From positions 1 through 64,000 of the IMG/VR virus record IMGVR_UViG_3300044266_000210: DNA of 64,000 bases; one strand, written 5' to 3'. This document shows, piece after piece, positions 25,401 through 64,000 of the stretch. The notes under the pieces are model-generated. The model was not told the origin of the DNA. It searched no databases and saw only the letters and a list, made by a program, of their open reading frames with translations. The position numbers were made by a program, and so were the translations under genes. How positions within the stretch are numbered: position 1 is the stretch's first letter; each line of letters starts with the position of its first letter. The DNA is from a virus. Its lineage: Duplodnaviria; Caudoviricetes.

Positions 25401-28195
25401 TTAAACCGTATCATACACAAATAAGACAGTTTATTAGCAAGTACACTGTTACAGAAACAGAAAATACACCATCTGGTCTATTCAATATTGCCAATACTGA
25501 CCTGACTGAATTTGATAGAACCTCAACAATAGGTCTCAAATTTGATAGAACCAGTTTTGACAACATGGTAGGAAGTTTTGAGGTTCTAGATACCTTTGTA
25601 GCCGACGGCGTAAGTAAATCCTATCCATTGAGTTGGGTTCCTGCGTTTGATAAAACAGGAATAACAATTAAAATAAATGGTATCATTGTGCCAAGTAGCC
25701 AATGGAGCGTTAATTATATAGAAAAATTATATAATGGATTCCATAAAAAGTTTGCCACACTAGAGATTTTTGGCGCCGAGGCTCTTACTAATGGTACTCT
25801 AATCACGGCTTCTTATAAGAAGAATGCTAACCAACTCAACGAAACAGAGCGTGTGTTGGCCTACTATACATCTACCTACGGTGTAGTTGGGCTTGATTTA
25901 ACGGCATTAGTTGATGGAATAGGTTATCCTGGCTTGACATTAGGAGGCCAGTACGAAGGTTCTGGATTTAATAATGCATTTGGAGGAGTGACACCCGATA
26001 GTTTAGTCACCGGCGGAACATGGATTAATGGTGAAAAGAATACTGCACTTGGAATCAACCCAGAAGATATAACAATTTCTGGCGAAGTTGGATTTGTAAA
26101 TACCTTCTCAGGACATGCTCCAAGTGAATTAGTTGAAGGGTTCATAATAGATAGTCTAGGTATAAATGTTTATACACTTGGCCATGCTGTACCTCCTTTA
26201 ATTATTAACGGGAATATCGCTACCTCAGTTTCGACTGAAGTTCAAAGCTATAGTCTTCCTAGCCTTCCTGCTTCTGTTGATAACATTAATGTGGTTCTAA
26301 ATAATCAAACTTTAGAATATACAACTTCTACCTTGGTATTAGGAGATAATAAGTTTGGAATTGATTGGACAAGCTCTTTATTGCTAATTCCTCCACAGTC
26401 TGTTACTGGACTTTTACACTATAGTTTAATTACAGTAGGCGGCGGTACTCAAGATGTTGGAACAATAGATAAACAAACAGCTATTGCTAATAATTCCACA
26501 GCAACAATTGTAAGTATTTTATCTGCAGGATTAGTACAAGATACATTTATTACAGTTAATGGGTTTAGGACAACTGATATTTCATTAATTACTCAAGACG
26601 GAAATGCTGCTGTAGTTGTTAACGGACTTGATCCTCTACAATCAAATGTAATTCAAGTATGGTTCTTTACAGAGTCACATGATAATTTCAATCAAATAGT
26701 TGATCAAACAAGCACCGAATCGTCCTTTGTATTAACTTCTACAGGAACACATATTGTAGAACTTATACATAATGGAACTACAGAGAAGTTAACATCATCG
26801 CAATATACCATTGTTGGAAATCTTTTAACTCTAAATAATGGATTAATGACAACAGGCGACACTGTTAAGGTTACATCCTTTATTGATAATACAGGTACAA
26901 TGGGTCCTGTAGTTGAGGAGTTTGTAGGAGACCCTGGCAGAAGATTTGTAATGAGTTCCCCGCCAGTTAGCAACTATTATATCTGGATTTCTTTAGTAAG
27001 ACAAGACGGAACAACTAAATCTTTAATCAGCGGCGTAGATTTTGTTGTGTTAGAAGATAATATGACCATTGAAATTAGTGATAACTGGAACATCACTAAT
27101 TTAGATACAGTACAAGTAATGAGTTTCAAGGTTCCTTTATATAAAGGTAATGTATTAGGCTATAGAATGTTTAAAGATATGCTAGGCGGCACATCATTTA
27201 CAAGATATAGTCTACAAAACACAACATATCTAACACAACCGTTGAATTCTACTGACACAGAAATACACGTTGCCGATGCAACTGTATTGACAGTTCCGTT
27301 AGTAGATGAAAATATTCCGGGAGTTATATTAATAAATTCTGAAAGAATTGAATTCTATCAAGTTGACGGAAATATATTAAAACAAATTACTAGGGGAACA
27401 TTAGGAACGGGCGTAAATTCAACATTAGATTACGGAACTCAAGTATTTGATCAAGGATCTTTACAACAGTTTTCTACAAGTGATGTAACGGATATTCAAT
27501 ATCATTATACATCATCGTCTACCGATTATTATGTCATAGGGACATCTGATGTCACTGTCACTATTCCAAATACAACTAACACAATAATTTCTAAAGGGAT
27601 TACCCTAGATACAAATATTATATTAAACAATCAAGTTGATGTATATCTTGGTGGACATCTTCTTAGAAAAGATAGTCTATACCAGCACAATACAGAAATT
27701 CAACTTGATAGTATATCTACAAGTACTATTGTTGGAACTGTTCAACATTTTGTTGACCTATTAAATGTTAATGCATTGCCAGGCGATAGCTACACCGATA
27801 CCAGCACTGGAAAAGTTTGGACATTCACTAGTACAAGAAGCGATGATATTAATGTGCCTGGATGGGTATATTCGGGCATGACTTTAACAGCACCGGATTA
27901 TACTGTATTTGTCGATGGTGCAGTACAAAAAATTCAGTTAAATAATGCTGTACAAGATGGATTAGAGCTAGCATTAGTTAAAAAGCACGGTATTACTAGC
28001 GATTTTAACGATGTATTAACAACTGCAACAACTCAAAGATTGTGGAATAGTACATCAACTATAGCTCTGTTCTTAAAAGATAGTCCTACAGAATTACCAA
28101 AAGTTATTTTTACATCTGCAGATGGTATTTTAAGGGATGAGCAAGCAAGACCATTAACAAATGAACACGATGAAGTTTTAACAGGAAAATCGTAA
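16403..28195 (+). CDS. Giant virion structural protein (3930 aa, baseplate-associated)
   Basis: Follows gp6; N-terminal NLLPEYF; CBM-like W/Y-rich modules, FG-GAP-like propeller repeats and beta-rich repeats. Confidence 0.7.
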   Translation: MANKKVSAVNLLPEYFKTLKNTKFLSSTVDKLIQKPELESIDGYIGSQSTPTYKSSDVYISNGNPYQLDPALIFYDNLQNIQGTQGYDDFINEVAAKGGYTNNLDRLLRSKFYSYNAHIDWDKLVNYQNYFWMPYGAETLEVPTWNLDINNDIVGLSQATVEVLLPDGTTEVVDLSNGMMLSFGGQEIDEYYHNKEFFVEGVGSSIKLVPFDKLIISETFLSPYPDGFDSNNYDTLPYDNDRELPNLKPEYVTINRASKDLNPWSRYNRWVHKDVVRQSAMLNGLEPNLSVGRAQRPIIEFKPDIKLYNFGSAGIVPVDFMDTKTLDPFNTVEGSTSPVHVDGVLLENGHRIIFNAADLAGIRGKVYEVVYIIQNGVPTLTLEPTYEPVEQDSITVLLGNDNNGTEWWYNGDVWVYAQQRESLNQAPLFDLFDQTGLSYGDKNHYLSDFTGNKIFSYAVGNGTVDPYLGFAISYKTVNLIGSILFDNNLCSDSIVISELSKPTYIISANSAYIKINNEYKNAWVRSQEYEIPVLASTATGILSYYEEPLGLTNNPLNGVTTQFTISELTEHVSSMIDRTPPLSNFVPLRDRADYTNLGTRLISNDNPISFAQVFLGKKEHDLIRAFEQSADNYGNFKLAFQNKLLYISDQISPIDAVDQILTELNQDKVYENSYYISDMAGYGVPESSRSWTVSRSTINSPSFPLANDFDLNVLSNRAVYVYKNNEQLIHGTDYLFNTDTTTVDILTPLSVGDVIVIKDYQDTTANYIPLTPSKLGLYPKFAPAIFTDNSYVTPQTVIQGHDGSIMIAYGDFRDAVVLELEKRIYNNIKSNYNTSLFDINLVHPGAFRTIDYSLEEVNDIIEGDFVRWASKFGIDYITNDTFDAENSKTWNFYQTNISSVDINFSGSLRGLLLYLYGTDKPHLAPWEMLGIYDKPDWWESTYGPAPYTNGNLILWTDIAEGKVNGVINDLYSRPGLLNIIPTDENGDLIDPNTLVTDTTPANIRKSWTFGDVGPAELAWRRSSYYPFAVQRLLALTKPADYCSKLYDPSRMKYNLAGQWTYGDTETFLKLNVLSIYNEKNNLTSGYSALVSEIGQARNKNYISELRQDLSYADYRLFAKLNGYADKDTLQIVIDAYEPTSTAPGSVLPPQNYQLWFNTSNPLQSLAISGMIVQRVEGGYSVRGYDKQDAYFPIFRPLRNIGTQSLTVGGISEKYVEWQAGSTGGATGLSSADTTTANSAPTGNFYSKGQYVLYSGNFYRTVVAHRAGSVFQTEYFQRVPKLPTKGGATVQLPVTFDQTVSRVPYGTFYSSIQEVYDLIVGYGRWLESQGFIFDEFNSDLNRVLDWNLSADEFLFWSTQNWSTGSIITLSPFANGINCQTSNTIVDNIFDSFYEYSVLGANGQPYPKNDLNILRDSGVCLIQTNPITDGIYFARLNLVQKDHSIVFDNETIFGDVIYNGKTASRQRRVKLVGFRTAGWDGGLTSPGFVYDKGIYSDWTPNTPYTIGDVVRFSQGYYSANQNIERAETFDFTKWDALQKKPTPALLPNFDYKIGQFEDFYSLDVDNFDAGQQKLAQHLTGYTQRVYLNNIFPDPVAQYKFYQGFIREKGTKNAIEKFAKVSQTTNQGDISYNEEWAFRVGHYGSFRTLKEIETPLIEGTFLENPQIISFVNEVPEATANDLIHYVTPNALTIVPDNFNPTSLFSTNTSTDSLLLQHSGYVRINDVTATAYNENSLLDIANSGQLKDGDTIWLGFTTNGDWEIYRYTYIPAEVLGVFVSNPLSSITFTTKYPHTLSVGQIVGINQLNSQVDGIYKVIEVINDKQFAVSSSLANITNAPLPVPGQLYAFKSVRVSNFDSLPSDQTLFEDRPGTKYWIDNDNGWAVYEKTDNFTGTNYLDITTGTQLGTGISKPKGSSVLVAGAPNNYRLQYGLVTLYEKQQNGQYADLVRWRIGPTYNTVPTGFGSTIVYDTLPFTGSRYGLVFVGAPLVGVVKVSSVNSQDLIEGKHEYITNTSAGFGRFILVENNKKTKLVLIGSDNAVYSYVVSDNAGVIGITGGGMFTSGTVSGMTNTVLNDIIAVGLTNKVEIYNKTLSLTQTIQVDNQNVLLSPGGEYLVVGNPTATNPNGSYGQVYVYKNVNNTFVLDQTIYNPATKVGMNFGTSIDITTGTESLVISATGTNGTLDTTFDKNLMTLDGNITRIKGTELYTGAVYVYYKQYQRFVYTQELHNPYVITNPGTNFGKTVATDDAEIVVAMPSSSNLSLNSGFSVFDKINKDTYSLKKISKQIPFVDTDPIGRISLIDTNKDQVIEYLDVYDPLKGRIPGIAEQEISYKLMNDPAIYTIGMTGVNVDTNKTWLDEHVGELWWDLSTAKYQWYEQGDLEYRRNNWGKLFPGATIDVYEWVGTTLLPTEWLAKADTVAGLADGISGQPKYIDNGVVAVKQVYDPVTNSFTNVYYYWVKNKTVKPNGTKRKLSAYDVASVIADPKAYGLKFASIISSDTIMLSNVGGLPVANNVSINITQDVATEFIQSPRHTQWYILNEGSDVKMPPEYLENKMMDSLLGHDKLGNLVPDTTLSERTKYGIGIRPRQSMFKDRHAALRNIIEFANDVLISTPITGYHSFVNLNAQEEIPDKFSNKYDHLVEDTVTLASIDTTGYQQAILNCSIDSNGAVGNVIIAQPGSGYGKLNPIYSSTGTVMGYEGPTFTVDDALYATTFDNNTTTFDENRTKFITKDEPNTFAEGLTISTMVDETGSIVRATIVNAGKRFGANFRLISRPHTVIVQSDDTYNGKWTRFEWDYVFNQWNRAHTQAFNTTLYWDYVDYASADYNKYQIYSAVVGNPYDLPTLSLTEGQYVKINNGGDGNYIVLRQTAPGVYGSYGNGFDLVYKQNGTIQFNKDLWEIRDNPLNWDYINTYDQTLWDQTPDTELVYIFAALKHDLFTYELKSNWNKLFFKAVRYALTEQKLLDWAFKTSFITLTHTLGELTQPPVYKMQDSGYYEDYVKEVKPYHTQIRQFISKYTVTETENTPSGLFNIANTDLTEFDRTSTIGLKFDRTSFDNMVGSFEVLDTFVADGVSKSYPLSWVPAFDKTGITIKINGIIVPSSQWSVNYIEKLYNGFHKKFATLEIFGAEALTNGTLITASYKKNANQLNETERVLAYYTSTYGVVGLDLTALVDGIGYPGLTLGGQYEGSGFNNAFGGVTPDSLVTGGTWINGEKNTALGINPEDITISGEVGFVNTFSGHAPSELVEGFIIDSLGINVYTLGHAVPPLIINGNIATSVSTEVQSYSLPSLPASVDNINVVLNNQTLEYTTSTLVLGDNKFGIDWTSSLLLIPPQSVTGLLHYSLITVGGGTQDVGTIDKQTAIANNSTATIVSILSAGLVQDTFITVNGFRTTDISLITQDGNAAVVVNGLDPLQSNVIQVWFFTESHDNFNQIVDQTSTESSFVLTSTGTHIVELIHNGTTEKLTSSQYTIVGNLLTLNNGLMTTGDTVKVTSFIDNTGTMGPVVEEFVGDPGRRFVMSSPPVSNYYIWISLVRQDGTTKSLISGVDFVVLEDNMTIEISDNWNITNLDTVQVMSFKVPLYKGNVLGYRMFKDMLGGTSFTRYSLQNTTYLTQPLNSTDTEIHVADATVLTVPLVDENIPGVILINSERIEFYQVDGNILKQITRGTLGTGVNSTLDYGTQVFDQGSLQQFSTSDVTDIQYHYTSSSTDYYVIGTSDVTVTIPNTTNTIISKGITLDTNIILNNQVDVYLGGHLLRKDSLYQHNTEIQLDSISTSTIVGTVQHFVDLLNVNALPGDSYTDTSTGKVWTFTSTRSDDINVPGWVYSGMTLTAPDYTVFVDGAVQKIQLNNAVQDGLELALVKKHGITSDFNDVLTTATTQRLWNSTSTIALFLKDSPTELPKVIFTSADGILRDEQARPLTNEHDEVLTGKS

Positions 28196-34038: not shown

Positions 34039-34317
34039 TTATTTTTTATGTACATAAGGGCAACCCAATGTAAGCATAGTAATTTCTCTAGGATCTTCTA
34101 CGCCAATTTCTATCATTTCCACAGTTTTATTATTACTGTCTAAAGATAAAGTCTTGCGGATTGCATACCTACTATTTAAGTGGTAGTTAATCCATTGGTC
34201 TAAATTCTTGAGATCACAAATACCAATTTTAATTTTGGTAAAATGATTGGGGATAAAGCTCAGACGCCTTACCCCCAAGACACTCAACGGGTTTACTTCG
34301 TTTCTACTTAGACTCAT
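34039..34317 (-). CDS. Hypothetical protein
   Basis: 92-aa ORF with ATGA overlap to the upstream gene. Confidence 0.65.
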   Translation of the reverse strand: MSLSRNEVNPLSVLGVRRLSFIPNHFTKIKIGICDLKNLDQWINYHLNSRYAIRKTLSLDSNNKTVEMIEIGVEDPREITMLTLGCPYVHKK

Positions 34318-35576
34318 TTTCCTAGTTCGTAGTGTGCGGTCTGTCCAAAGGGTGCAATAATTTCTTTGTTGCCATGTATAATAAACAGCGTATCGCAGTA
34401 GTCCTCATCACCCCAGCTACCACAAGGGTATCCATCTGTGAACATAATGAATTTTTTGGGTTGAATGTCGTTATCTTTCATGAATTGGAAGTTAACATCA
34501 AAGTCAGTACCACCACCCCCTTGGCAACGATAATCATTAATATCTTCTGCGGTATCACCTGTGAATTGTTGATAGCCATAGACATCTGTATCGAAAGTCC
34601 ACAGATCAAGTTTAAAGTCTTTATACTCTTCCATAATGCCTTTAACTTCGCTTAAGAAGTCTTTAGCCATTGCATCACTAATAGATCCGCTCATGTCAAT
34701 ACAGACACTGACATCAATGGTTTCTTCATTCATCATACCAGGTAAAACAGCACCGCAGTGTTGGCTCTTACGATTGGGACGAGTAAAACTGAAGTTGCTC
34801 TTAAAGATACTTTGGATGTTCATACGCAACATTTGTCGCCAGTCCATCTTAGGCTCAGTAAACGCTTGAATCATTCTTGCAACACCTGCAGGAACTTTAC
34901 CAGCACCTGCGGATTGTGCGGCCGCAACCATTGCTTCTTTGATCTCGTCACGGATCTGTTTCTTTTCCTCAGCAGTTAGCTTAGGGCGCTTGCTCTTGCC
35001 ATCACCGTCTTGTTCATCACCGTCGCCGTCACCTTCGCCATCACCGTCAAGGTGTTCATCCAACAGCTCGCCTAGCTGACTAATGTCAATCTTAACGGCA
35101 TTCTTTTCAATGTCTTCGTAAATTTGTTCGTAGCTCCAACCGCGATATTTGTTGTCTTGGAAAATTTTAATAAAATGCGGCACTTCACCGATACGCTCGT
35201 CTTTAAGGATTTGATTAGCGGCATAGTCAGCGGCAATGTTTGACAACTGTGGATCTCGGCTTTCACGGCGTCCCATGTGATCAAATACATTATGTAAAAC
35301 TTCGTGTGCAAATCCAAATTCGCATTCTTTTGGATTAAGTGCGTGAACAAAATCGTTGTTATAATAGAAGTGGCGACCATCTGTGGCCAATGTACCAATC
35401 CAGTCTGTAGCGTCGACTAGTTTAAGACGAGTAGCCAAATTACCAAAAAAAGGATGTCGCAGTAGAAGGCCAATACGGGCAGTGATTAGTTTCTCAACAA
35501 TCTTATTTTTTTGATCTTGAGTAAATTCTTGTTTGGTTATTTGTTTTTGTTTAGTTGCTGTAGTTGTCTTGCTCAC
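34314..35576 (-). CDS. Metallopeptidase-like plus vWA domain protein (DUF2201-like)
   Basis: HEVLH (HExxH), MIDAS DMSGS, GGGTDF, FTDG; GTG start at 35576 after AGGAG. Confidence 0.85.
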   Translation of the reverse strand: MSKTTTATKQKQITKQEFTQDQKNKIVEKLITARIGLLLRHPFFGNLATRLKLVDATDWIGTLATDGRHFYYNNDFVHALNPKECEFGFAHEVLHNVFDHMGRRESRDPQLSNIAADYAANQILKDERIGEVPHFIKIFQDNKYRGWSYEQIYEDIEKNAVKIDISQLGELLDEHLDGDGEGDGDGDEQDGDGKSKRPKLTAEEKKQIRDEIKEAMVAAAQSAGAGKVPAGVARMIQAFTEPKMDWRQMLRMNIQSIFKSNFSFTRPNRKSQHCGAVLPGMMNEETIDVSVCIDMSGSISDAMAKDFLSEVKGIMEEYKDFKLDLWTFDTDVYGYQQFTGDTAEDINDYRCQGGGGTDFDVNFQFMKDNDIQPKKFIMFTDGYPCGSWGDEDYCDTLFIIHGNKEIIAPFGQTAHYELGK

Positions 35577-35605
35577 AATAAACTCCTGTTTTGTGTATAT
35601 ATACA

Positions 35606-35634
35606 ATTATACACTCAAAATGTAAAAAATGCAA
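35606..35634 (-). promoter_or_regulatory. Sigma70-like promoter
   Basis: TTGCAT-17 nt-TATAAT. Confidence 0.6.
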
Positions 35635-52891: not shown

Positions 52892-53386
52892 TTATTTTTT
52901 GTTCAGAAATGTTGCGGCAAATCTTTTACAGATGTCTTTAAGTTTACCAGTTTGTGTTTCTTCTAGGCTAAACTTTACCTTCTCGTTGTCCTGTGTTGGA
53001 TCTATATACCCACAATAGACTTTGCGACATTTTGAATTGTTTACCAAATCGGTACAACTTTCTCCATAGCGTTCGTCCATATCCTCGTTGCAAGGACTTA
53101 GTGTGGTAATAATAATACTACCCTGTGGTATTGGACCGTAGTGTTCTTCATAACGATCCATAGCAACTCTTTCTGCGTGGCGTCTAGTTCCGTCCCCGGC
53201 CGCCTCGTTTACACCGAAGACTTTGCGGTTTTTGGGGTCTAAGACACAGGCCGCAACCATTCCGTATTTTTCTGAATCAATATTCTGACCCTTTATTACA
53301 TGGTAGCAGAGTTCAGCCAGAATCTTGTCCAGCTTAGGACGATTGTGAATTTCATAATCACTTTCATCAAACTCTCTTAGTCTCAT
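52892..53386 (-). CDS. Zinc-dependent cytidine/dCMP deaminase-superfamily protein
   Basis: HAE and TLSPC...C motifs, with an 11-residue spacer between the Cys residues. Confidence 0.8.
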   Translation of the reverse strand: MRLREFDESDYEIHNRPKLDKILAELCYHVIKGQNIDSEKYGMVAACVLDPKNRKVFGVNEAAGDGTRRHAERVAMDRYEEHYGPIPQGSIIITTLSPCNEDMDERYGESCTDLVNNSKCRKVYCGYIDPTQDNEKVKFSLEETQTGKLKDICKRFAATFLNKK

Positions 53387-55341
53387 TTTTTCTTGCTTGG
53401 TTCGTTGGCAGCATAATGTGCCGCTACAGCCATTTGTGCTTTCTTTTGTGGTGTTTTATTTTTAAACTGATGGTATTTGTTTGGATCGGCTTTTTGAAAA
53501 TCCTGTACCCATACATCTACATCAGCTTGTGGATTTAATTTTTCTGATACTTGTTGTGCCACACTTAGTACATAAGCATCTTCGTGGCAGTTCCATTTAC
53601 GCAGAGCCAATGCCTTGCGTGTAGGTTTGCCGTTAGGCTTCTTCATTGGACCCTTTACACCTGACATACGAGCACAGAAAGATTTGCGGCGTTTAGCGGC
53701 CTTACTACCTTTCTTTAACTTGCTAGGCTTGGTAGTAACTGCTGTTTGTAGTTTGCTACCAGGATGACTACGACGATAACTAGCTACACCCTTCTTATTC
53801 AACCCGCCTGATTTGCTCTTGCCTTTACTTGTTTGCCATGCTTCGGCTTCTGCTAGTAATTCTTGATCGTCGATATTTTCAACATCTTCCCAGACTTGAT
53901 CAACATCTACACCGTTCTGAGCGGCAATGTCTTCAATCATAGATTCGATAATATCAAATTTCTGATTAAGTTCGGCATCTTCGCTTAGACCTTTTTTCTT
54001 CTTAGCGATAGCAATAGCGGCCTGTTGTGCAGGATTAGCTGCCTCGGTAGCTTCAATGTCTTCTTTAGGCACACAGTTATTAACTCTAACACCGCCCTTC
54101 ATTTTAGTACCCTGCTTTTTATAGCCTTTCCAGCAACTAGGATCTAGTCGTTGTTTTTCTTCGTTAAGTACTGTTTCTAAATGGCTCATGAATTCATCTT
54201 CCATGACTCCGCGGCCGTGATGTGTTCCTGAGTATGTATCGTAGGATCCTTTACCCCAACCACCTACTGTACTATGATCTTCGCTGACCTGTTTGATTGC
54301 TTGGATAGCTGGTTTAACTTGATCTTGTTTTAATTTAACAGGAAATTCTTTTCCTGCATAATTAAAACTATCTTCGCCTCTACTGGCCGCTACAGCGTGA
54401 GCCTTAGCAAATTGTTCTGCCTTATCTTGACCGCCAAGTTTTCTAGCGGCTAAATCCCATAGCTTGTCTACTGCCCACATACCACCTTTAGCACTATTAT
54501 AAGCACCGTAGGCTGCAAGAGCAGTTCCGATAACAGGACCCAACAGCCCGACAATAGCAGGAGCACCGGCAGCACCAAGTGCGCCTAATGCCAGACCGCC
54601 TGCTGCTTTTGCTAGGAAAGGTGCATCTTCGTCGACTTCTTCTGCACGAGCAATTGTTTGCTTTAGACTATGAATACGACTTTGAATATCTTTTTGTTGA
54701 CGCCAGAAGCTATGATCATCACTGTATTCAAAGTTAGGATCAAACTGTCCCTGTAATTTTTCTAATTCAGCCTTCATCTGTGGAAGGTTTGCTTTATCAC
54801 GAGCTAGACTATCTGCACGGTTTTTTTCGTCCGATGCTGCCCTTATTTTATCATATCGTGCCTGTGCGCGACCGATCCCTGCATCTCTTCTACGAGCAAT
54901 ATCTAGTTCTTTTTCTCGACTTGCTGGATCATTGCCAAACGCCGCGCCCATTTTTGCCAGAGCTGATGCCATTTTAGCCTTGCGCTGATAATCCCCTAGA
55001 CTAACTTCATCTAGTTTTGCTTTTAATACTTCAATGCGTGTTGCAATATCTTCCATGTAAGGTTTCTTGTGTTTTTCCTTACCTTGTTTTTGTTCTTTTT
55101 TCTTGTCTCGATGGGCGCCTGCACCTGTCTGAGTTTTTAACGCACCTTGTCTAGGCTTTTGTTTAACTGGAACAGTAACACTATCGCCTTCTTGTGTAAT
55201 TAGCCCGCCTCGTTTAATAACATTGCCCATAGGCTTTGATATGCTAGCTACAGCACCTGCACTAGTACCGCCGCCTGTTGCACTTTCCAAAGTATAGACA
55301 GTGGCATCTTTATATTGTTTTACTTTAAATTCGTGTTTCAT
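53383..55341 (-). CDS. Modular basic/acidic protein, putative head-internal polyprotein
   Basis: Short basic modules (CWKGYKKQGTKMKGG..VNNCVP; GGLNKKGVASYRR..RRKSFCARM) separated by Glu-ending linkers. Confidence 0.6.
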   Translation of the reverse strand: MKHEFKVKQYKDATVYTLESATGGGTSAGAVASISKPMGNVIKRGGLITQEGDSVTVPVKQKPRQGALKTQTGAGAHRDKKKEQKQGKEKHKKPYMEDIATRIEVLKAKLDEVSLGDYQRKAKMASALAKMGAAFGNDPASREKELDIARRRDAGIGRAQARYDKIRAASDEKNRADSLARDKANLPQMKAELEKLQGQFDPNFEYSDDHSFWRQQKDIQSRIHSLKQTIARAEEVDEDAPFLAKAAGGLALGALGAAGAPAIVGLLGPVIGTALAAYGAYNSAKGGMWAVDKLWDLAARKLGGQDKAEQFAKAHAVAASRGEDSFNYAGKEFPVKLKQDQVKPAIQAIKQVSEDHSTVGGWGKGSYDTYSGTHHGRGVMEDEFMSHLETVLNEEKQRLDPSCWKGYKKQGTKMKGGVRVNNCVPKEDIEATEAANPAQQAAIAIAKKKKGLSEDAELNQKFDIIESMIEDIAAQNGVDVDQVWEDVENIDDQELLAEAEAWQTSKGKSKSGGLNKKGVASYRRSHPGSKLQTAVTTKPSKLKKGSKAAKRRKSFCARMSGVKGPMKKPNGKPTRKALALRKWNCHEDAYVLSVAQQVSEKLNPQADVDVWVQDFQKADPNKYHQFKNKTPQKKAQMAVAAHYAANEPSKKK

Positions 55342-55706
55342 TTTTTACTCATCCAATTACTGGTAGGGCTTACCTTGTGTGTATCTTCGGGTTCTGCACT
55401 TTTAGACCATGGAGTTACCTGTTTGCTGTCTGTAGGAACAGTTGCTTCGGCCTGGCGGAACATATTATATTCTTCTTCTGTGTAGGGATGCTGTGTGTTA
55501 TACTTTTCTACCCAACTTGCTTCATCCATATCAACTGGTTTTTTACTCTTACCGTCGGCCATAGCAGTGGCCATCCATAAACGATTCATGTGATAAGTTC
55601 TATCGTAGCCACCATCGTCACGAGAAACATAAACACCTTGCTGTACCGCGGCATGGCGCTTCTTCATTTTTCCCTTTCGCTCTACAATAAAATCTCTTGC
55701 TCTCAT
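55338..55706 (-). CDS. Hypothetical protein, putative virion-internal
   Basis: 122 aa; begins MRARDFIVE. Confidence 0.65.
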   Translation of the reverse strand: MRARDFIVERKGKMKKRHAAVQQGVYVSRDDGGYDRTYHMNRLWMATAMADGKSKKPVDMDEASWVEKYNTQHPYTEEEYNMFRQAEATVPTDSKQVTPWSKSAEPEDTHKVSPTSNWMSKK

Positions 55707-56149
55707 TGCGGGCCGCCCTTGCTACTTGCTCGTAACATCCATCCGTGCTTTTCGTGTGCGTCCATACGCTCTGCCAGGAAGTTGCTGAATCCGTGCTTGC
55801 CTTCTGCTTCGGCAGCATCGTATGTTTTCTTTAGGATCATGATCATCCGTTCATTGTCAATTAATAATTCTCGTACCATCGCTTCTAGAGGAATGATTTC
55901 AGTTTCATCTTTAACTTGAGTAAGCATACTGAAGCGAGCTAGGCTTGCTGGAGTGTAGGTCTTTAATTTGCGAATATTTTCGGCAAAATCGTCAACAACT
56001 CCATACACTTCGTCGTAAATCTTTTCAAAAAGTGCGTGATATTCAAAGAAATCGCTTCCTTCGACGTTCCAATGAAAGTTCTGCGCCTTTAGTGCAAAAC
56101 TATAGGTGCTTGCAAATGCTATTTTGGCTAACTGTTGTAACTGATCCAT
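55703..56149 (-). CDS. dps: Dps/ferritin-like DNA protection protein
   Basis: NFHWNVEG..F...H.LFE..Y.....D..AE ferroxidase motifs, HEKHGWML; ATAAATA upstream at 56157-56163. Confidence 0.9.
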   Translation of the reverse strand: MDQLQQLAKIAFASTYSFALKAQNFHWNVEGSDFFEYHALFEKIYDEVYGVVDDFAENIRKLKTYTPASLARFSMLTQVKDETEIIPLEAMVRELLIDNERMIMILKKTYDAAEAEGKHGFSNFLAERMDAHEKHGWMLRASSKGGPQ

Positions 56150-56155
56150 GATATG

Positions 56156-56419
56156 TTATTTATTATTTTTTCCAAACCAAAGTTTAAACCACTCTTCGGT
56201 TCCAGGACGTATTCCCTGTTCACGCTGTATTTGTCCTTTATTACTACCTACTACAGCAGGTTTTAACAGACTATTATATTGGGCCAGTGCCTCCATTGAT
56301 CCTAGTCCGCCCATCATGCTTGCAGGCATTAGGTTGTGTATAGGATCATCGGGTGCTAGATAGCAATCGTTATCCTCTTTAGGATTAAGATCTGCGCTGG
56401 TTATTTTGTATTGCTTCAT
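56156..56419 (-). CDS. Hypothetical protein
   Basis: 87-aa ORF ending IRPGTEEWFKLWF. Confidence 0.65.
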   Translation of the reverse strand: MKQYKITSADLNPKEDNDCYLAPDDPIHNLMPASMMGGLGSMEALAQYNSLLKPAVVGSNKGQIQREQGIRPGTEEWFKLWFGKNNK

Positions 56420-59400
56420 TCATTATAATCTTATCAATAAGAGAGGCAAAAATACGATCTAGATCTTCGTTAACACTTTCAGCAGCCCCGCCTACTAAGT
56501 CGCCTGCTCTTGCTGGGCGATTCTTACTTGGTCCAGTATTTTTCCACTGCCCTGCTGGTCCTAATTTGTTTCTGTCACTGCCAGCAAACGTACTCTTAGG
56601 CAACATAGCTTCATTCTTCTTAGCAATGTCTCTACCTTTTAGATGTTCTTCGCGGCGTTTATCGCCAGCGGCACGTAGTTTAGCTGTAGCACCATCCTTG
56701 GGATCTGTTAAGCGTTTAGCTGTTTGTGCCATTGCTTTACTTTCACCTTCCGCCACACCTTCGTTCTTTGGCATTAGGTGATAGTTTTTTCGTGCTTCGA
56801 TATCAACTAAGTCAGCATTTAGTTGACCCATTGTTAGTCCGTGTGGTCCGCGTCTTAAATCATCCATAACATCTGGATGTGCGTTTAACCACTTACGCAT
56901 ATCAGGAGTCATCTTACCAGCACGAATAGCATCAGCATAACTTGTTAGGAACTTGATGTATTCTTGTCTGTCAATCTCATTTCCTGCGGCACCGCCGCGG
57001 GCGCCTGCAACTGCTGGATAATAAGGACTTCCAGGATGGAATGGGTTACTTGCTACTTCAGAACCGTGACCACTTACACTTCCACCCTTACCGCCACTAC
57101 TTCCACCTTTACCACCACTAGCGTGTCCACCGCCTGAGCTAGCATGTCCACCACTTCCACCGTGTCCACCACCGCCTCCGCCACCTTTGGCCATAGCGTT
57201 GACACCTGTTGCTCCTAATGTGGCAGCACCCAGACCTTTTAAGAATCCTCTACGGTCTATACCTGCTTCCGCCACACCTTGCTCCACATCAACTATCTCA
57301 CCACGAGGAAAAGAATCTACAACTTTTTCTGCTGTAGTACGGGGCATGGGTTTTGTTTTGACCCATCTACCTGACTCCATTGTGTCCTGTTGCCAGTATT
57401 TAATCTGAACCAACTCTGCCAAGCCTTCCGCCACACCTTGCTGTTGTTTCTTCTCAGCATCCTTTTTAGCCTGTGCCATTACTTCTTCACCACGGCGACG
57501 ACTAGCATCACTCTTGGCACGCTCACGATCAAAGGCACGCTGTAGTTTAACGGCAGCACTCATTCGTGCTTCGTCTACGCTACTCTTTAAGTGACGGATA
57601 ACTGCACTTGCACTCTGCGTAACAGATGCCTGTGGATTCTTACGGCATACTTGTTGTATAACATTCATTAAGTACTCGTCACCGTATCGTGAGAATAGTT
57701 CAGGTTGCATCTCGTGTAAAAACTCTGCTACCTGTGCAGATTTATCTTCTTCGTATTCTTCCCAACCGTGATATTGCTTTTCATCTGTTTCGTTGATGTG
57801 TGTGCAGTTGCAAGGAGTTTGTCCACATACTGTACACATATCTTTGCCGCTTCTAATAAGAGCATTAAACAATCTTGTTTCAGATAGCGGTGCAGGTTGT
57901 GGTTCAACCTTAGGTGCCGGTTGTTTTGTAGGTTGTTGTGTGATGCCCATACCTTTTCTCGCAATATCCATTAAGTGTTTGATCCATGCCGGATCTAATT
58001 TTTGTGCTCCGTAGTTTCCGCTGTTGTATGCCGTATTCCACATAGCAAATTGTTGTTCGGGTGTCTTGTTAGGATCCTTTAAGACATTTCTTAGCTGTGT
58101 TCCGCTTACTCCAGTACCACCTTCTTCTGCGCCACGGCCGGTCACATTTGGTTCCACCTTGACATGTTCATAGCCGGCAAACTTGTTAACTGCCTTCATT
58201 AAAGCCTTACTCATACTATCGGCCATACTAGCACGATCGGTCCCTACAGTAATGATAATGTTATCATAGCGAGGTGCCTTACCCGGTAAAGGATTGATCA
58301 GTTCGTGTTTAATTTTTTGTATAAGTGTACCACCTTCGTGTGATACGGTGCTAATATTATCTGCATACTGTGGATACAGTTTACGCCATGTTTCTACTTT
58401 GACTGCGGGAGGAATAGGATCGTCTTTGCCTTCAGCAGTACCAATAAACATATATGGATCACCACCTACCTGTTTGGCTTTTTGTACAGCATAGTTGAAT
58501 AGCTGTTGATGCCCTACATGTCCGATAGCACTACCTATAGCAACAACTGCGGTCTTATTTGAATTAGCTCTTGGTTGTTCTGCACGAGCAGCCGCACGAG
58601 CTGCATTTTTTTGTGCTATAAGATCTTTTTGTTTTTCACTAGTTACCTTAACAGGTCCTAGTCGTGTGTTGATAACAATACCTTCGTAGTCCTGTCCTAA
58701 CTTATCTTTGCCAATAATATTTGGATCTTCATCAATTGCTTTTTCTAGAGCAATCTGTACAGGCTTTAATTTAGCTTCTACCTCTCTGCGTAGCTCTAGA
58801 CTTGCACGATCACGCTTGCCTGCTGTGTCACTAACAATACGCTTTAGTTCTTCTAAGTTTTCTAACGGATTGATAATTTCTGTAACATCTAGTCCTTCTT
58901 CTTGAACCAGTCTATTACTCATAAACATCACGCTTCCGCTCTGACCTAGATTAGCTAGTTGCTGAGCAGCCTCGTCGGGTAAATCATTACCTGTGCTTGC
59001 TTCTACAATACGATATGGTACTAGTACTAGTTCTACACCTTGTGGCAGTTGATCATATTCGATTCCAACAAACTTTAGTTTGCCTTCCTCAGTTTGTGTG
59101 GCAAATGGTAAAAATAATACTTCACAGGTTACCTGTTTGTCTACTAGAAATTCTGGTCCTAACTTGCTGTCAACAACCTTGATAGCCTTCATCATTTCGC
59201 CAAATAGCTTATCAAAATTTGCGGCACGCCCTAGAATCTCAGGATCAGTTGTACCTTTTTGTTTGTGATAGTCTACAAAGCCTGCTGAATATTTTGGTTC
59301 AGTGCGGCTGGTACCCATAAAAGGTTTACCGTCGCTGTTCTTACCAAAGCGGCCACCAAATCCGTCGATCTTGACATTTAGAGGAATATTCTGTAGTTTG

Positions 59401-60704
59401 AAACGACCGCCTTCTGATCTAAGTTCGTCTACCAAATCTAAAAAGTCTGCTGGCTTCAAATCACGAAGGTGTGGCATACCTTTGCGTAACTGTGCCTGTA
59501 CTTTAGGTTCTTCTGCTTCTTCAACAGGGCGATCTAATCCCACAGGTCCTTCTGAAGTTACTCTATAGTTCTTTACATAGTCTTGACGCATCTGTTCAAG
59601 ATTTTTTGGAGGAGTTATCTTTAAAGTTTTGAGTGCGTAGTTAAGTGCGGCATTCTTTTCGGCCATATCGCGCTGTGCATCACCTTTGTATAATCCTTGC
59701 GCTCCGGGAGCAAACAGTTTATCGACTAGCGCATCTAGTACCTGTTCTTTTTCTTCTGGTGTTAATACCAAATTCATGATCTCTAGTAGACCTGTAAAGC
59801 TCCAAGTCTTAGGAAGCAACTTTTTAAGTGCGCCAGTATCTATTCTTTTACCAAAGATAGTTTGAAATATAACGCCGAGGTCTTTCTCGTAACCGGCTGC
59901 AGGCAATGCTCGCATAACAGGTAACCCGTCATTTACTACCGGGCGTCCCTTTTCATCTGTAACGGGTTCATATTTTGCTCGCAGACCTCCACCTTCTTTA
60001 CTGCTGACAGCAAAACTGATCATATTATCTGTTGTAGGAACATCTTGTTCTGCACGAGCTTTACCGCGACCTACCATTTTGCGTAGTAAAAAGTCTTGTT
60101 TGGTTAATCTAGTAAACGCACCAATCAGATATTTGTGGAATACACCTTTAATACCTTGGCTTAGATCTTCCCAACTTGAACTGTGACTGAATCCTGCCCA
60201 GTCTGTAGGTTCATCTTTATCGTTGTAATCAACAAATTCAAAGTCAATCTGTACCTTTATTGGGGGATCGGTTAGTTCCCATAGACTGCTATATTGTTCA
60301 TTACCTCTGCTGTATCCTAAAAACTTAGCATTACCTACCACTTGTCCTTTTACACCATTCAACCACTGTGCTAGGTGAGGTTCGGAGTCTTTGTTAATCT
60401 GTGTATCTATGTCACCTACCTTAGGTTTGATACGCTCAAACTCATCGTCGGGTATGTCTGTATTGAAAAAATGTAGACTACTACCGCTTAGATACTTTCT
60501 ACTTTTAAGTACTTTTGGGCTCCATAGGTCATTGCCCTGGCTAGCCTTAAATCCTGCATTTATACTGTTTAATAATTGACTAAGGATAGGTACAATATAG
60601 GCACGATTGTGTACCTTAAGTTCTATCTGTTGTGCTTGGGCGCCATCTATCTCTAAATTACCGCCTTCTAAAAGTGTTCGCTTAAAAAATTCTCTTAAGA
60701 TCAT
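56385..60704 (-). CDS. Multidomain protein: Pol-beta-like nucleotidyltransferase, KxDG ligase-like domain, HxGH cytidylyltransferase, modular tail
   Basis: SGSS...GDID...QIDF; NVKIDG; GHVGH...VSGTQLR; C-terminal cassettes bounded by GVAE repeats. Confidence 0.65.
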   Translation of the reverse strand: MILREFFKRTLLEGGNLEIDGAQAQQIELKVHNRAYIVPILSQLLNSINAGFKASQGNDLWSPKVLKSRKYLSGSSLHFFNTDIPDDEFERIKPKVGDIDTQINKDSEPHLAQWLNGVKGQVVGNAKFLGYSRGNEQYSSLWELTDPPIKVQIDFEFVDYNDKDEPTDWAGFSHSSSWEDLSQGIKGVFHKYLIGAFTRLTKQDFLLRKMVGRGKARAEQDVPTTDNMISFAVSSKEGGGLRAKYEPVTDEKGRPVVNDGLPVMRALPAAGYEKDLGVIFQTIFGKRIDTGALKKLLPKTWSFTGLLEIMNLVLTPEEKEQVLDALVDKLFAPGAQGLYKGDAQRDMAEKNAALNYALKTLKITPPKNLEQMRQDYVKNYRVTSEGPVGLDRPVEEAEEPKVQAQLRKGMPHLRDLKPADFLDLVDELRSEGGRFKLQNIPLNVKIDGFGGRFGKNSDGKPFMGTSRTEPKYSAGFVDYHKQKGTTDPEILGRAANFDKLFGEMMKAIKVVDSKLGPEFLVDKQVTCEVLFLPFATQTEEGKLKFVGIEYDQLPQGVELVLVPYRIVEASTGNDLPDEAAQQLANLGQSGSVMFMSNRLVQEEGLDVTEIINPLENLEELKRIVSDTAGKRDRASLELRREVEAKLKPVQIALEKAIDEDPNIIGKDKLGQDYEGIVINTRLGPVKVTSEKQKDLIAQKNAARAAARAEQPRANSNKTAVVAIGSAIGHVGHQQLFNYAVQKAKQVGGDPYMFIGTAEGKDDPIPPAVKVETWRKLYPQYADNISTVSHEGGTLIQKIKHELINPLPGKAPRYDNIIITVGTDRASMADSMSKALMKAVNKFAGYEHVKVEPNVTGRGAEEGGTGVSGTQLRNVLKDPNKTPEQQFAMWNTAYNSGNYGAQKLDPAWIKHLMDIARKGMGITQQPTKQPAPKVEPQPAPLSETRLFNALIRSGKDMCTVCGQTPCNCTHINETDEKQYHGWEEYEEDKSAQVAEFLHEMQPELFSRYGDEYLMNVIQQVCRKNPQASVTQSASAVIRHLKSSVDEARMSAAVKLQRAFDRERAKSDASRRRGEEVMAQAKKDAEKKQQQGVAEGLAELVQIKYWQQDTMESGRWVKTKPMPRTTAEKVVDSFPRGEIVDVEQGVAEAGIDRRGFLKGLGAATLGATGVNAMAKGGGGGGGHGGSGGHASSGGGHASGGKGGSSGGKGGSVSGHGSEVASNPFHPGSPYYPAVAGARGGAAGNEIDRQEYIKFLTSYADAIRAGKMTPDMRKWLNAHPDVMDDLRRGPHGLTMGQLNADLVDIEARKNYHLMPKNEGVAEGESKAMAQTAKRLTDPKDGATAKLRAAGDKRREEHLKGRDIAKKNEAMLPKSTFAGSDRNKLGPAGQWKNTGPSKNRPARAGDLVGGAAESVNEDLDRIFASLIDKIIMNEAIQNNQRRS
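56747..57439 (-). repeat. Three exact 15-bp direct repeats AAGGTGTGGCGGAAG, encoding (E/Q)GVAE
   Basis: Copies at 56747-56761, 57266-57280 and 57425-57439; spacings 519 and 159 bp, both multiples of 3. Confidence 0.9.
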
Positions 60705-60705
60705 G

Positions 60706-61074
60706 TTACATTCCTATTTTATATTTGCCTTTGACAACATCTTCTTTGTAATGATCTAATAAGCGCTCACACATATCCTTTCTTAGTTCTTCGGAAAACA
60801 CTTTACCTAATTTTCCTTTTAATTTTTTATGTTCGTAGTATTCTTTGCAACCTTTTAGAACCATTGGCATGAATTCTTTAATTGCTTCGTCCTTACTATA
60901 ATTGCCTTTTTTAGAGGCTAACTTTCTAGCAATAGGAAAGAAATAATCTTTATGCAGTTTGTCGTGGTCAACGATGTACCAGAACAGATCGTCGCTGATG
61001 TTTTTATCATCGCGGCCCTTCTGAAGGTCTTTTACAGGGTCTAGGTTTTTGCCAAAGAATTCGTTAAGTAGCAT
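60706..61074 (-). CDS. Hypothetical protein
   Basis: Probable start MLLNEFF at 61074; ATAAATA at 61115-61121 upstream. Confidence 0.65.
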   Translation of the reverse strand: MLLNEFFGKNLDPVKDLQKGRDDKNISDDLFWYIVDHDKLHKDYFFPIARKLASKKGNYSKDEAIKEFMPMVLKGCKEYYEHKKLKGKLGKVFSEELRKDMCERLLDHYKEDVVKGKYKIGM

Positions 61075-61560: not shown

Positions 61561-62273
61561 GTTGATTCCTCTGACTGGGTATTTATCAAAGATCTTGGAA
61601 CAAATTCTTCGATCTTTGATGCCCTGTCGCCTAAAAACAGCAACAACATGCTTAGAGTAGGGCCGTCTTCAACATATATACTTGGATTGGTTACCCATCG
61701 TTTTCTATTTGTTAACCAGTTTGCTACACTTACAGGAACACGCATTTTTCCGTTGTATTTGGCCATCCAAGACCAGAGGTTATCTTTGAGAGTTTGATTA
61801 ATGTTTTCTTTAATATGTAATTTGTACTGGTATTGTTTGAAGGGTAAATGATTGCAGAGCACTTTTTTATGTCCGTTGTCTAACATATATTGATACTCTG
61901 CATCATTAGCAGGCTCGTACACCGCTTGAATCCAGTTACTCATTTTTTTACATATTTGTTTGAACAGTTTGGTATCGTTGCAGTATATACTAAAGATACT
62001 GCCCTCAGTTCTTACAAATATATCTTTATCTAAAAATACATCAATATCTTTAATAAACTCTAATAGTTTAATAGGATCAAATTCTTGTTCTCTTCTAGCA
62101 AAGAATCCTGAGGCATGTATTTGTTTAGTCAAGCATTGTGCAACGGCATACTGAATACCGTTTCGTTTTATCATATAAGATCCTTTGCAATAGCATTTGA
62201 TCTTATATGAATATTTGTGGTAGAACAGCTTATGCGTTGTCAGTTTCTGGTAGCTCATCTTTGGCCTTTTCAA
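61548..62273 (-). CDS. Hypothetical protein
   Basis: About 235-aa ORF overlapping the end of clpA; start uncertain. Confidence 0.65.
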   Translation of the reverse strand: MKRPKMSYQKLTTHKLFYHKYSYKIKCYCKGSYMIKRNGIQYAVAQCLTKQIHASGFFARREQEFDPIKLLEFIKDIDVFLDKDIFVRTEGSIFSIYCNDTKLFKQICKKMSNWIQAVYEPANDAEYQYMLDNGHKKVLCNHLPFKQYQYKLHIKENINQTLKDNLWSWMAKYNGKMRVPVSVANWLTNRKRWVTNPSIYVEDGPTLSMLLLFLGDRASKIEEFVPRSLINTQSEESTCPV

Positions 62274-64000
62274 TAGGCATTATGTCTATAACGTTGATTT
62301 TTAGCTCACTGTTTTCAACTATAATTTCAACAACCCCGCCATTTACTAACTTACCAAAAAGTATTTCTTTGCTTAAAGGTCGTTTAATATAGTCATCGAT
62401 ACAGCGTTGTAGAGGACGAGCACCCATTTTGCTATTAAATCCTTTGGTAATCAGCCACTCAACTGCTTCCGATGTAGGCTTAACATGAATATTTTTATCT
62501 TTAATTTGAGCATTAAGTTCATCAATGAACTTCTTAACAACTCGAATCATGGTCTGTTGATCTAGCTTACCAAACTTAATAACACCATCTAAACGATTTC
62601 GGAATTCGGGTGCAAAGAATCGGTTAACAGCATCTTTCGGATCGCTATCTCGCTCTAAACTACCAAAGCCTACACTATTCTTTTCAGCATCAGCGGCACC
62701 TAGGTTACTAGTCATAATAAGAATAGCATTTCTTGCATCTGCTTTCTTGCCATTACTACCTGTAACAAACCCGTTATCCATTACCTGTAGCAGAACTGTA
62801 AGAACACTAGGGTGTGCTTTTTCAACTTCGTCTAACAACAGTACACAGTTAGGTGTTTCTTGTAGGCTTGTGATTAACAATCCTGCATTGTCTTCGTAGC
62901 CTACATAACCCGGAGGAGCACCGATGAACTTGGCTACACTGTGTTGTTCTTGATATTCACTCATATCAAAGCGCACTAGTTTAATACCAAGATTTTGTGC
63001 CAACTGTTTAGCAGCCTCAGTCTTACCCACACCGGTTGGTCCTACAAATAAGAAGTTACCGATAGGACGGGTAGGTGATTTCAATCCTGCCTGTGCGATA
63101 AAGACCTTATCTAGTAGGCTTTCGATAGCTTGTTCCTGCCCAAAGACCTTAGACTTCATATTCTTTTCTAGGTTAGGTAAGTTGCTGGTCTCTTTACTGT
63201 TAATACTTTCAATAGGAATATTAGCAATACGACTAATTTCAAACAAGATTTCATCATGGTCAACAATACCGCCCTCTTCGTCTCGTAGTTTGAAACGAGC
63301 ACTAGCACAGTCAATTAGGTCAATAGCCTTATCTGGTAGTTTCTTATCGCTAAGATACTTAACGCTATATTTCACGCTGTCAATGACAGCCTGGTTAGTA
63401 ATCTTAACACCGTGATGTTTTTCGTAATACTTCTTAAGACCTTTGATAATCTTAACAGCAGTTGCCTCATCTGGCTCATCAATTACTACACGTTGGAATC
63501 GACGCATCAGAGCACGATCCTTTTCAAAGTGCTTACGGTATTCTTCCCATGTAGTACTGGCGATAACTTTAATTGTACCCTTACCTAATGTGCTTTTAAG
63601 CATATTGGCCATATCATTACTGTTATTACCTGCGGCACCAGCACCATTCATCATGTGTGCTTCGTCAATGAATAGGATACACTTACCTTTCTTTTCGAGA
63701 CCATGAATAACAGCCTTGAGTCGTTCTTCAAAGTCTCCACGGTATTTGCTGCCAGCTAGCATGGCGCTGATGTCCAGGCTATAGACAGTATGATCCTGCA
63801 CAAACTTAGGAACATTACCTTCGTAGATTTTACGAGCAAGTCCTTCTGCAATAGCAGTCTTACCTACACCTGGATCGCCTATCATAATAGCATTGGACTT
63901 AGTGCGGCGTGCTAACACCAGTTGAATTTCTTCAATTTCTTTTTCACGACCAATGACAGGATCAATTTTCTTACTCTTGGCTCTTGCACTAAGGTTTAGG
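62230..64000 (-). CDS. clpA: ClpA/ClpB-family AAA+ chaperone, 5'-partial
   Basis: IDPVIGRE, GDPGVGKT, KYRGDFEERL, FIDEAH, GPTGVGKT, RFDMSEY, GAPPGYVG, GARPL; lacks the ClpB middle domain; frame open to the window end. Confidence 0.92.
   Translation of the reverse strand, partial: LNLSARAKSKKIDPVIGREKEIEEIQLVLARRTKSNAIMIGDPGVGKTAIAEGLARKIYEGNVPKFVQDHTVYSLDISAMLAGSKYRGDFEERLKAVIHGLEKKGKCILFIDEAHMMNGAGAAGNNSNDMANMLKSTLGKGTIKVIASTTWEEYRKHFEKDRALMRRFQRVVIDEPDEATAVKIIKGLKKYYEKHHGVKITNQAVIDSVKYSVKYLSDKKLPDKAIDLIDCASARFKLRDEEGGIVDHDEILFEISRIANIPIESINSKETSNLPNLEKNMKSKVFGQEQAIESLLDKVFIAQAGLKSPTRPIGNFLFVGPTGVGKTEAAKQLAQNLGIKLVRFDMSEYQEQHSVAKFIGAPPGYVGYEDNAGLLITSLQETPNCVLLLDEVEKAHPSVLTVLLQVMDNGFVTGSNGKKADARNAILIMTSNLGAADAEKNSVGFGSLERDSDPKDAVNRFFAPEFRNRLDGVIKFGKLDQQTMIRVVKKFIDELNAQIKDKNIHVKPTSEAVEWLITKGFNSKMGARPLQRCIDDYIKRPLSKEILFGKLVNGGVVEIIVENSELKINVIDIMPIEKAKDELPETDNA

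Follow-up and report, generated by a model that had tools for sequence, protein, structure and literature searches.

A short in-frame DNA joint between protein modules in giant T4-related phages: a candidate exchange point and head-protease site

The 1439-residue gene and its three repeats

The 64,000-nucleotide (nt) stretch considered here (hereafter the window) comprises positions 1 to 64,000 of the IMG/VR virus record IMGVR_UViG_3300044266_000210 (Caudoviricetes), a 131.5-kb contig estimated to hold 37% of a genome, which corresponds to ~350 kb in full. Its subject is a short DNA repeat, termed the joint, found within a single gene for a 1439-residue multi-module protein (56385..60704, minus strand). 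The repeat is a 15-mer present in exactly three copies in the window, all on the minus strand (56747-56761, 57266-57280 and 57425-57439), two of which extend to 18 nt; the spacings of 519 and 159 nt correspond to 173 and 53 codons. All three copies encode Gly-Val-Ala-Glu (GVAE) in the frame of the open reading frame (ORF). In gene order, copy 1 (57425..57442, minus strand, 18 nt) reads QQGVAE followed by G, copy 2 (57266..57283, minus strand, 18 nt) reads EQGVAE followed by A, and copy 3 (56747..56761, minus strand, 15 nt) reads NEGVAE followed by G. No further copy with up to two mismatches occurs in the window, and none with up to one mismatch in the rest of the contig, such that a contig-wide count returns three copies only; none of 100 shuffles of the window reached three or more. 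The peptide GVAE is likewise confined to these three sites across the contig and is each time encoded as GGT GTG GCG GAA, in a contig where GTG accounts for 9.7% of Val codons and GCG for 7.5% of Ala codons, both rare. The two joint-bounded segments share no mutual similarity. An earlier examination of the bare sequence, made without database searches (the sequence-only reading), had described three in-gene copies, two of them of 18 bp, uniform in their rare codons and bounding unrelated cassettes of 53 and 173 codons, and this description was correct throughout.

In the protein, a conserved body (residues ~14-950) is followed by a variable cassette region (residues ~951-1400) and then by a C-terminal tail that is again conserved. 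Myoviruses of Campylobacter, Vibrio, Xanthomonas and Stenotrophomonas encode homologues of residues 14-383, and PHROG matches mark residues 713-881 as nucleotidyltransferase-like. This stretch is the sole recognised part of the protein: Pfam searches with six segments of the gene gave nothing above cut-off, and no embedded peptidase domain was found with PHROG or Pfam. The cassette region, searched by tblastn against 50,697 cultured-phage records, gave no match.

Cassette A (57279..57425, minus strand; 49 residues between joints, residues 1094-1142) has no Pfam match and no relative within 1 Mb of related loci. Cassette B (56760..57266, minus strand; 169 residues, residues 1147-1315) contains a signal resembling those of the twin-arginine translocation (Tat) pathway, a Gly/His-rich stretch and a helical domain. 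Its AlphaFold2 model has a mean pLDDT of 55, with confident helices at residues 93-163 only, and the best structural match (Z 4.4) is not informative. The Gly/His-rich low-complexity stretch (57077-57182) is made of imperfect 21- and 18-nt repeats (families D1 and D3) and is retained in all cassette B homologues. The C-terminal 120 residues (56388..56747, minus strand) comprise at least three sub-modules, named C1, C2 and the conserved tail, with Glu-ending junctions between them that lack the 15-mer; C2 and the tail are found again, in other contexts, in the relatives L114, L097, L124, L099, L100, L058 and P0004. An 87-residue ORF (56156-56419, minus strand) overlaps the 3' end of the gene, and its clear homologue (L130:3636-3929) lies directly after the cassette-bearing nucleotidyltransferase gene of that relative.

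The joint in related phages

An exact-match scan of IMG/VR found at least 120 contigs with the joint, and many of the contigs listed hold two to five clustered copies. Among the matches listed, to which the counts in this section refer unless another sample is named, 190 of 197 copies of the 12-base core are in frame within ORFs of at least 100 codons. Their amino acid context is nearly always (K/E/Q)(Q/E/K)-GVAE-(G/A/E/D), the flanks being otherwise unrelated. Across 120 loci, 190 of 247 in-frame GVAE sites carry the canonical DNA, and the next commonest classes are single silent changes. When one ascertained copy per locus is discounted, 70 of 127 sites are still canonical, compared with 0.9% expected from codon usage. 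At loci reached by protein homology alone, seven of 11 GVAE sites are canonical and three more differ by one or two silent changes, again with 0.9% expected. In five large contigs, every core copy with up to one mismatch is clustered and on one strand, 16 being canonical and six silent variants. The proposal that constraint acts on the DNA beyond the peptide is supported by these codons and by the bias of frame and strand.

This constraint extends past the GVAE codons. The codon two before the joint is G-ending in 90 cases and otherwise in 26, opposite to the local bias (p about 1e-22), and in 85 of 108 cases the Gly that follows the joint is encoded by GGC. Because the silent positions of the flanking codons are also biased, the element is ~20 nt in length, with the consensus AG CAA GGT GTG GCG GAA GGC. 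A scan of 185,579 prokaryote genomes for hosts or CRISPR spacers with the exact 20-mer gave one mis-binned phage contig (L144, three copies) and five single matches, apparently due to chance; these five records, four of them assembled genomes and one a small contig of a metagenome-assembled genome, have a GC content of 53-66%.

A total of 172 distinct copies join ~150 upstream and 144 downstream flank families. Between pairs of copies, 22 share the upstream 20 residues only, 25 the downstream 20 only and one both; in 45 pairs (21 upstream-only and 24 downstream-only) identity on the other side does not exceed 20%, and ungapped similarity there extends for 0 nt in all. Where residues are conserved in the shared flanks, one codon in three has diverged, and hence these are not all recent copies. 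Breaks at the joint are also seen in longer alignments. Between the orthologous genes of L005 and L071, collinearity extends over at least 1.8 kb as far as the joint; two and three different cassettes follow, respectively, with GVAE or SVEE as the border of each, after which collinearity resumes. L100 and L058 match collinearly over 2.4 kb on the downstream side of the joint and are unrelated upstream of it. Together, these comparisons support the view that in-frame modules are gained, lost and exchanged at the joint among related phages. Within a single relative, L114, the same 144-nt upstream module is present with 100% identity in two different ORFs (plus-strand joint copies at 3462 and 4770), and each copy runs via a canonical joint into a different downstream module, an intragenomic duplication that ends at the joint.

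The closest orthologues of the 1439-residue gene itself are those of L124/L125, 80% identical across the first 900 residues, and P0004. These proteins keep the body and tail and have different cassettes, with sizes of 1146 residues in L124 and 1342 in P0004. The L124 gene has neither cassette A nor cassette B and none of the three joints; in the same relative, the orthologue of a 652-residue neighbour gene described below has two canonical and three decayed joints. Homologues of cassette B occur in at least six other architectures, and always start 1-3 residues past a Glu-ending junction. On the upstream side of the cassette, the window and P0006 have a canonical junction, and the other architectures a decayed one or another Glu-ending sequence. 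Downstream of it, GVAE is present in the window, P0008 and P0010, with canonical DNA in the window (the only one of the three where this was checked as canonical) and two silent changes in P0008; several of the architectures have a second GVAE, GVDE or GVEE after the cassette.

Leaders, export signals and the proposed role of the joint

The 1439-residue protein begins with a 13-residue leader ending in Leu-Leu-Glu (60666..60704, minus strand), a candidate capsid-targeting propeptide that resembles the leaders of T4 IPII and IPIII. In T4, the internal proteins IPI, IPII and IPIII, as well as Alt, have a capsid-targeting sequence (CTS) that is removed by the prohead protease gp21 (PMC9026906). 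The gene sits within an 8-kb run of co-oriented genes, and similar leaders are shared by its neighbours: three co-oriented genes of 164, 652 and 122 residues with N-termini like the T4 CTS (52892..55706, minus strand), of which the 652-residue gene contains DUF6321 modules, and a fifth leader-bearing gene of the cluster (60706..61074, minus strand). A pattern of ~10 residues ending aliphatic-x-Glu, chosen after the genes were seen and with the IPII and IPIII leaders taken from NC_000866, matches five of 296 ORFs of the contig, all five within 52892-61074. Additionally, the homologue in Campylobacter phage CP220 has a similar leader ahead of Gly-Gly-Asn, while that of Vibrio phage Va1 begins Met-Gly-Gly-Asn, which fits a removable propeptide.

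Several other genes surround this cluster. A Dps/ferritin-like gene without a CTS-like leader (55703-56149, minus strand; Pfam Ferritin, 3e-17) adjoins the cassette genes, and is also found beside cassette genes in three independently assembled relatives (L131:8192-8632, L132:4916-5356 and L133:12139-12579). Upstream of the cargo cluster lies a ClpA/ClpB-like AAA+ gene (62230-64000, minus strand; phrog_4871), with conserved synteny in L124 (210-2477) and L133 (1803-4076); in L133, a DnaJ-like gene lies ahead of it. Farther away, the window encodes T4-type gp46/gp47 (SbcCD-like) recombination nucleases (1598..4389, minus strand), which are general recombination machinery, as well as a gp5-like hub-lysozyme, a gp6-like baseplate wedge and a family-B DNA polymerase. 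A 3930-residue ORF (16403-28195, plus strand) that adjoins the baseplate genes matches the virion structural protein family phrog_10938. The source phage belongs to a clade of T4-related phages whose genomes are roughly 350 kb in size.

T4 gp21 is specific for hydrophobic-x-Glu (PMC9026906), and this is the form taken by 65 of the 149 non-GVAE junctions of homologous modules, in the same register as the joint; the T4 leader itself includes I-A-E. The relative G018, with a DNA polymerase 80% identical to that of the window and three joints, encodes gp21 (7e-26) and gp23 (2e-96), and G001 also encodes both. A further indication comes from Tat-type signals. The one in cassette B (57189..57266, minus strand; residues 1147-1172) starts one residue after joint copy 2 and has an R-R-x-F-L-K core, a hydrophobic stretch and an A-x-A-like end. 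Six relatives have signals that pass TIGR01409, including a near-identical one in L101 that is located after a joint; in the window and in six relatives, a Tat-type signal directly follows a junction of this Glu-ending kind. As a Tat signal is meaningful only near a free N-terminus, such placement counts towards cleavage. Considering the T4-like leaders, the gp21 of relatives, the other hydrophobic-x-Glu junctions and the position of the Tat-like signal, it is plausible that a T4-type head protease cuts after V-A-E and releases separate packaged peptides.

In three relatives (L037, L071 and L079), the Tat signal lies directly behind a CTS-like 9-residue leader and is followed by a peptidoglycan hydrolase-like domain. 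The proteins are of ~215 residues (L037:3861-4510, L071:6654-6905 and L079:11806-12040, all minus strand). The L037 domain, the sole one scanned, is Pfam Glyco_hydro_19 (GH19; 3.6e-14), and L071 and L079 share its motifs by eye. They may be wall hydrolases that are packaged in the head and re-exported through Tat; alternatively, they may be ordinary endolysins, exported by Tat, whose N-terminal region is unusual.

The account that is favoured here, with somewhat better than even confidence, is of a portable, frame-preserving joint of ~20 nt that serves both as a crossover point for general recombination and as a head-protease site separating head-packaged, injected peptides. Crossovers between co-infecting or duplicated genomes would fall within the short identical stretch by way of the phage's general recombination system. 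Each such exchange would keep the frame and regenerate a perfect joint, which would leave the DNA uniform at silent sites. The 1439-residue product would enter the prohead via its N-terminal leader, where a gp21-type protease may cleave V-A-E and other hydrophobic-x-Glu junctions on the C-terminal side of the Glu. This would turn the modules into separate peptides that are packaged in the head and injected, and would give cassette B a new N-terminus with an exposed Tat-type signal. A bolder form, a recombinase-free “integron inside a reading frame” of giant T4-related phages, with a dual-coded joint of ~20 nt, more than 140 module families and Tat re-export to the periplasm of the next host, is put forward only tentatively.

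A number of observations weigh against the favoured account. Most copies of the joint were ascertained by searching with its DNA, which biases the large counts, and the unbiased samples amount to 14 copies. For homologous exchange driven by a recombinase, a stretch of 15-20 nt is short. Comparison of the 1439-residue gene with its two closest orthologues places the left breakpoint of the variable region away from any 15-mer, and there are several module borders with no 15-mer at all; it follows that the joint helps exchange, yet is neither required for it nor the sole border. Gain, loss and exchange of cassettes at the repeat are supported within the clade, as with L005/L071 and the one-sided homology, but not for the left breakpoint in those orthologues. 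The Tat-like signal of the window scores 20.9 bits against Pfam TAT_signal, for which the cut-off is 22.7, and has no TIGR01409 match. No protease or capsid gene is present on the 131.5-kb fragment, which is 37% complete, and none for gp21 or gp23 was detected by Pfam models or the G001 capsid protein in G002, the most complete motif-bearing contig (343 kb and, by CheckV, 99% complete; the contig of L082), which has four canonical joints and a DNA polymerase 66% identical to that of the window. The putative cleavage of the protein is the weakest link of the favoured account.

If the protein is instead left whole, the linkers would be flexible inter-domain spacers of an intact “polyvalent” protein, with no proteolysis and with the DNA joint still acting as an exchange point. 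Polyvalent proteins, in which many unrelated domains are combined, are well documented in phages (PMC5512222), and the contig of the window has no protease gene. A Tat-type signal would be useless in mid-chain within 1439 residues, yet such signals stand directly behind Glu-ending junctions in seven contexts, and the hydrophobic-x-Glu form of 65 of 149 alternative junctions, the T4-like leaders and the gp21 of close relatives also speak against this view. This explanation is doubtful, although it deserves more weight than any of those that follow.

Other explanations place the constraint in a different role of the nucleic acid, such as a translational pause that lets modules fold separately, an RNA-processing site or a protein-binding site. 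The rare codons GTG and GCG and the Shine-Dalgarno-like AGGTG (AAGGTG) of the motif are suggestive of such a role, as are the restriction of near-exact copies to one strand in the five large contigs and the in-frame position, within long ORFs, of nearly all copies at the scanned loci. The preferred flanking codons, however, form a specific sequence and are not merely rare, CAA, GGT and GAA being common ones. No secondary structure is shared by the three copies in the window, which fold differently (z-scores of -2.8, -0.6 and -1.1), and the break of homology exactly at the joint would be left unexplained, making a role of this kind improbable. An internal translation start after AAGGTG was also considered and rejected, as there is no consistent start codon at a usable distance.

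Slightly less probable again is that the cassettes are moved by a dedicated enzyme, whether a homing-type endonuclease or an integron-like recombinase, that specifically recognises the 20-mer. The length of the 20-mer suits nuclease recognition sites, free-standing homing nucleases are numerous in T4-type phages (segD in T4), and the window encodes a 430-residue HNH endonuclease (34314-35606, minus strand; phrog_1314, 3e-108), which lies ~20 kb from the cassette gene and for which no link to the joint was found. Against this, no nuclease or recombinase gene lies beside the arrays in the window, L124, L131, L132 or L133, a phage with several copies would cut its own genome, and cassette exchange in T4-type phages is known to proceed without a dedicated enzyme (PMC2839356). 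No integrase was found among the PHROG and Pfam matches of the scanned window genes (part of the ORFs) or among the called genes of L131-L133. Given the lack of a shared, attC-like hairpin and of a recombinase beside the arrays, a dedicated integron-like system is unlikely, and the integron-like, site-specific logic of the sequence-only reading is not upheld. Lastly, chance or mis-assembly at a short repeat, a concern with any contig that is a metagenome assembly, is excluded for practical purposes by the shuffles, by the loci reached through protein homology and by the recovery of the same joint and cassette B in independent ENA, JGI and Logan assemblies, the repeat also being shorter than assembler k-mers.

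Were the account of a joint that is both crossover point and protease site true, these phages would invent and trade injected proteins as modules of 50-200 residues without introns, integrases or loss of frame, and part of the pool of orphan sequences in giant phages would be explained. The 20-mer would provide a simple tag for candidate host-takeover or anti-defence cargo in metagenomes, and the joint suggests a natural design for packaging multiple payloads into T4-type heads. The Tat signals just after putative cut sites raise the further idea that some injected proteins may be exported into the periplasm of the cell that has just been infected.

Comparison with known systems

No published description of the joint was found in the literature, nor any paper tying GVAE to proheads. 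Several known systems nevertheless share some of its features. The integron attC site is an imperfect palindrome that folds as a hairpin, a structure that the three copies in the window do not share. Polyvalent proteins (Iyer et al. 2017) resemble the 1439-residue protein in having many unrelated domains and in being thought to be delivered with the DNA; their release, if any, is by an embedded peptidase, and no joint at the DNA level is described for them (PMC5512222). The internal proteins of T4 share with the cassette genes a leader of ~10 residues ending aliphatic-x-Glu and a place in a variable, non-core cluster of cargo genes. These are single-module proteins that are cut once or twice, whereas the cassette gene encodes many modules with internal joints that look like cut sites and have fixed DNA.

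A parallel in mechanism is offered by the promoter-early stem-loop (PeSL) cassettes of T4-type phages, where recombination shuffles, deletes and inserts genes, also via mini-circles (PMC2839356, PMC4122927). Like the joint, PeSLs are short, conserved and located where T4-type genomes are plastic, and they act without a dedicated recombinase. PeSLs, however, are intergenic regulatory units composed of a sigma-70-like promoter and a terminator hairpin, and they move genes; the joint is itself part of a coding sequence, keeps the frame intact, lacks a hairpin and moves protein modules.

A precedent at the level of the gene is the “recer” sequence, an in-gene repeat of ~15 bp in albumin- and IgG-binding surface proteins of Gram-positive bacteria (de Chateau & Bjorck 1996, cited in PMC3467074). 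As outlined in that later source, several direct repeats of ~15 bp lie at module borders in one intronless gene, and in-frame shuffling was proposed. The joint shows the same traits, with in-frame repeats at the borders of unrelated modules and homology between genes that ends at the repeat. The recer sequences, again as outlined there, belong to one family of bacterial surface proteins with few module types (PMC3467074), while the joint is found in phage genes, connects ~150 unrelated module families across the clade among the matches listed, and is probably also a protease site. The joint differs from both recer and PeSL in that a DNA element which preserves the frame is combined with a probable protease site, and in its very large repertoire of modules.

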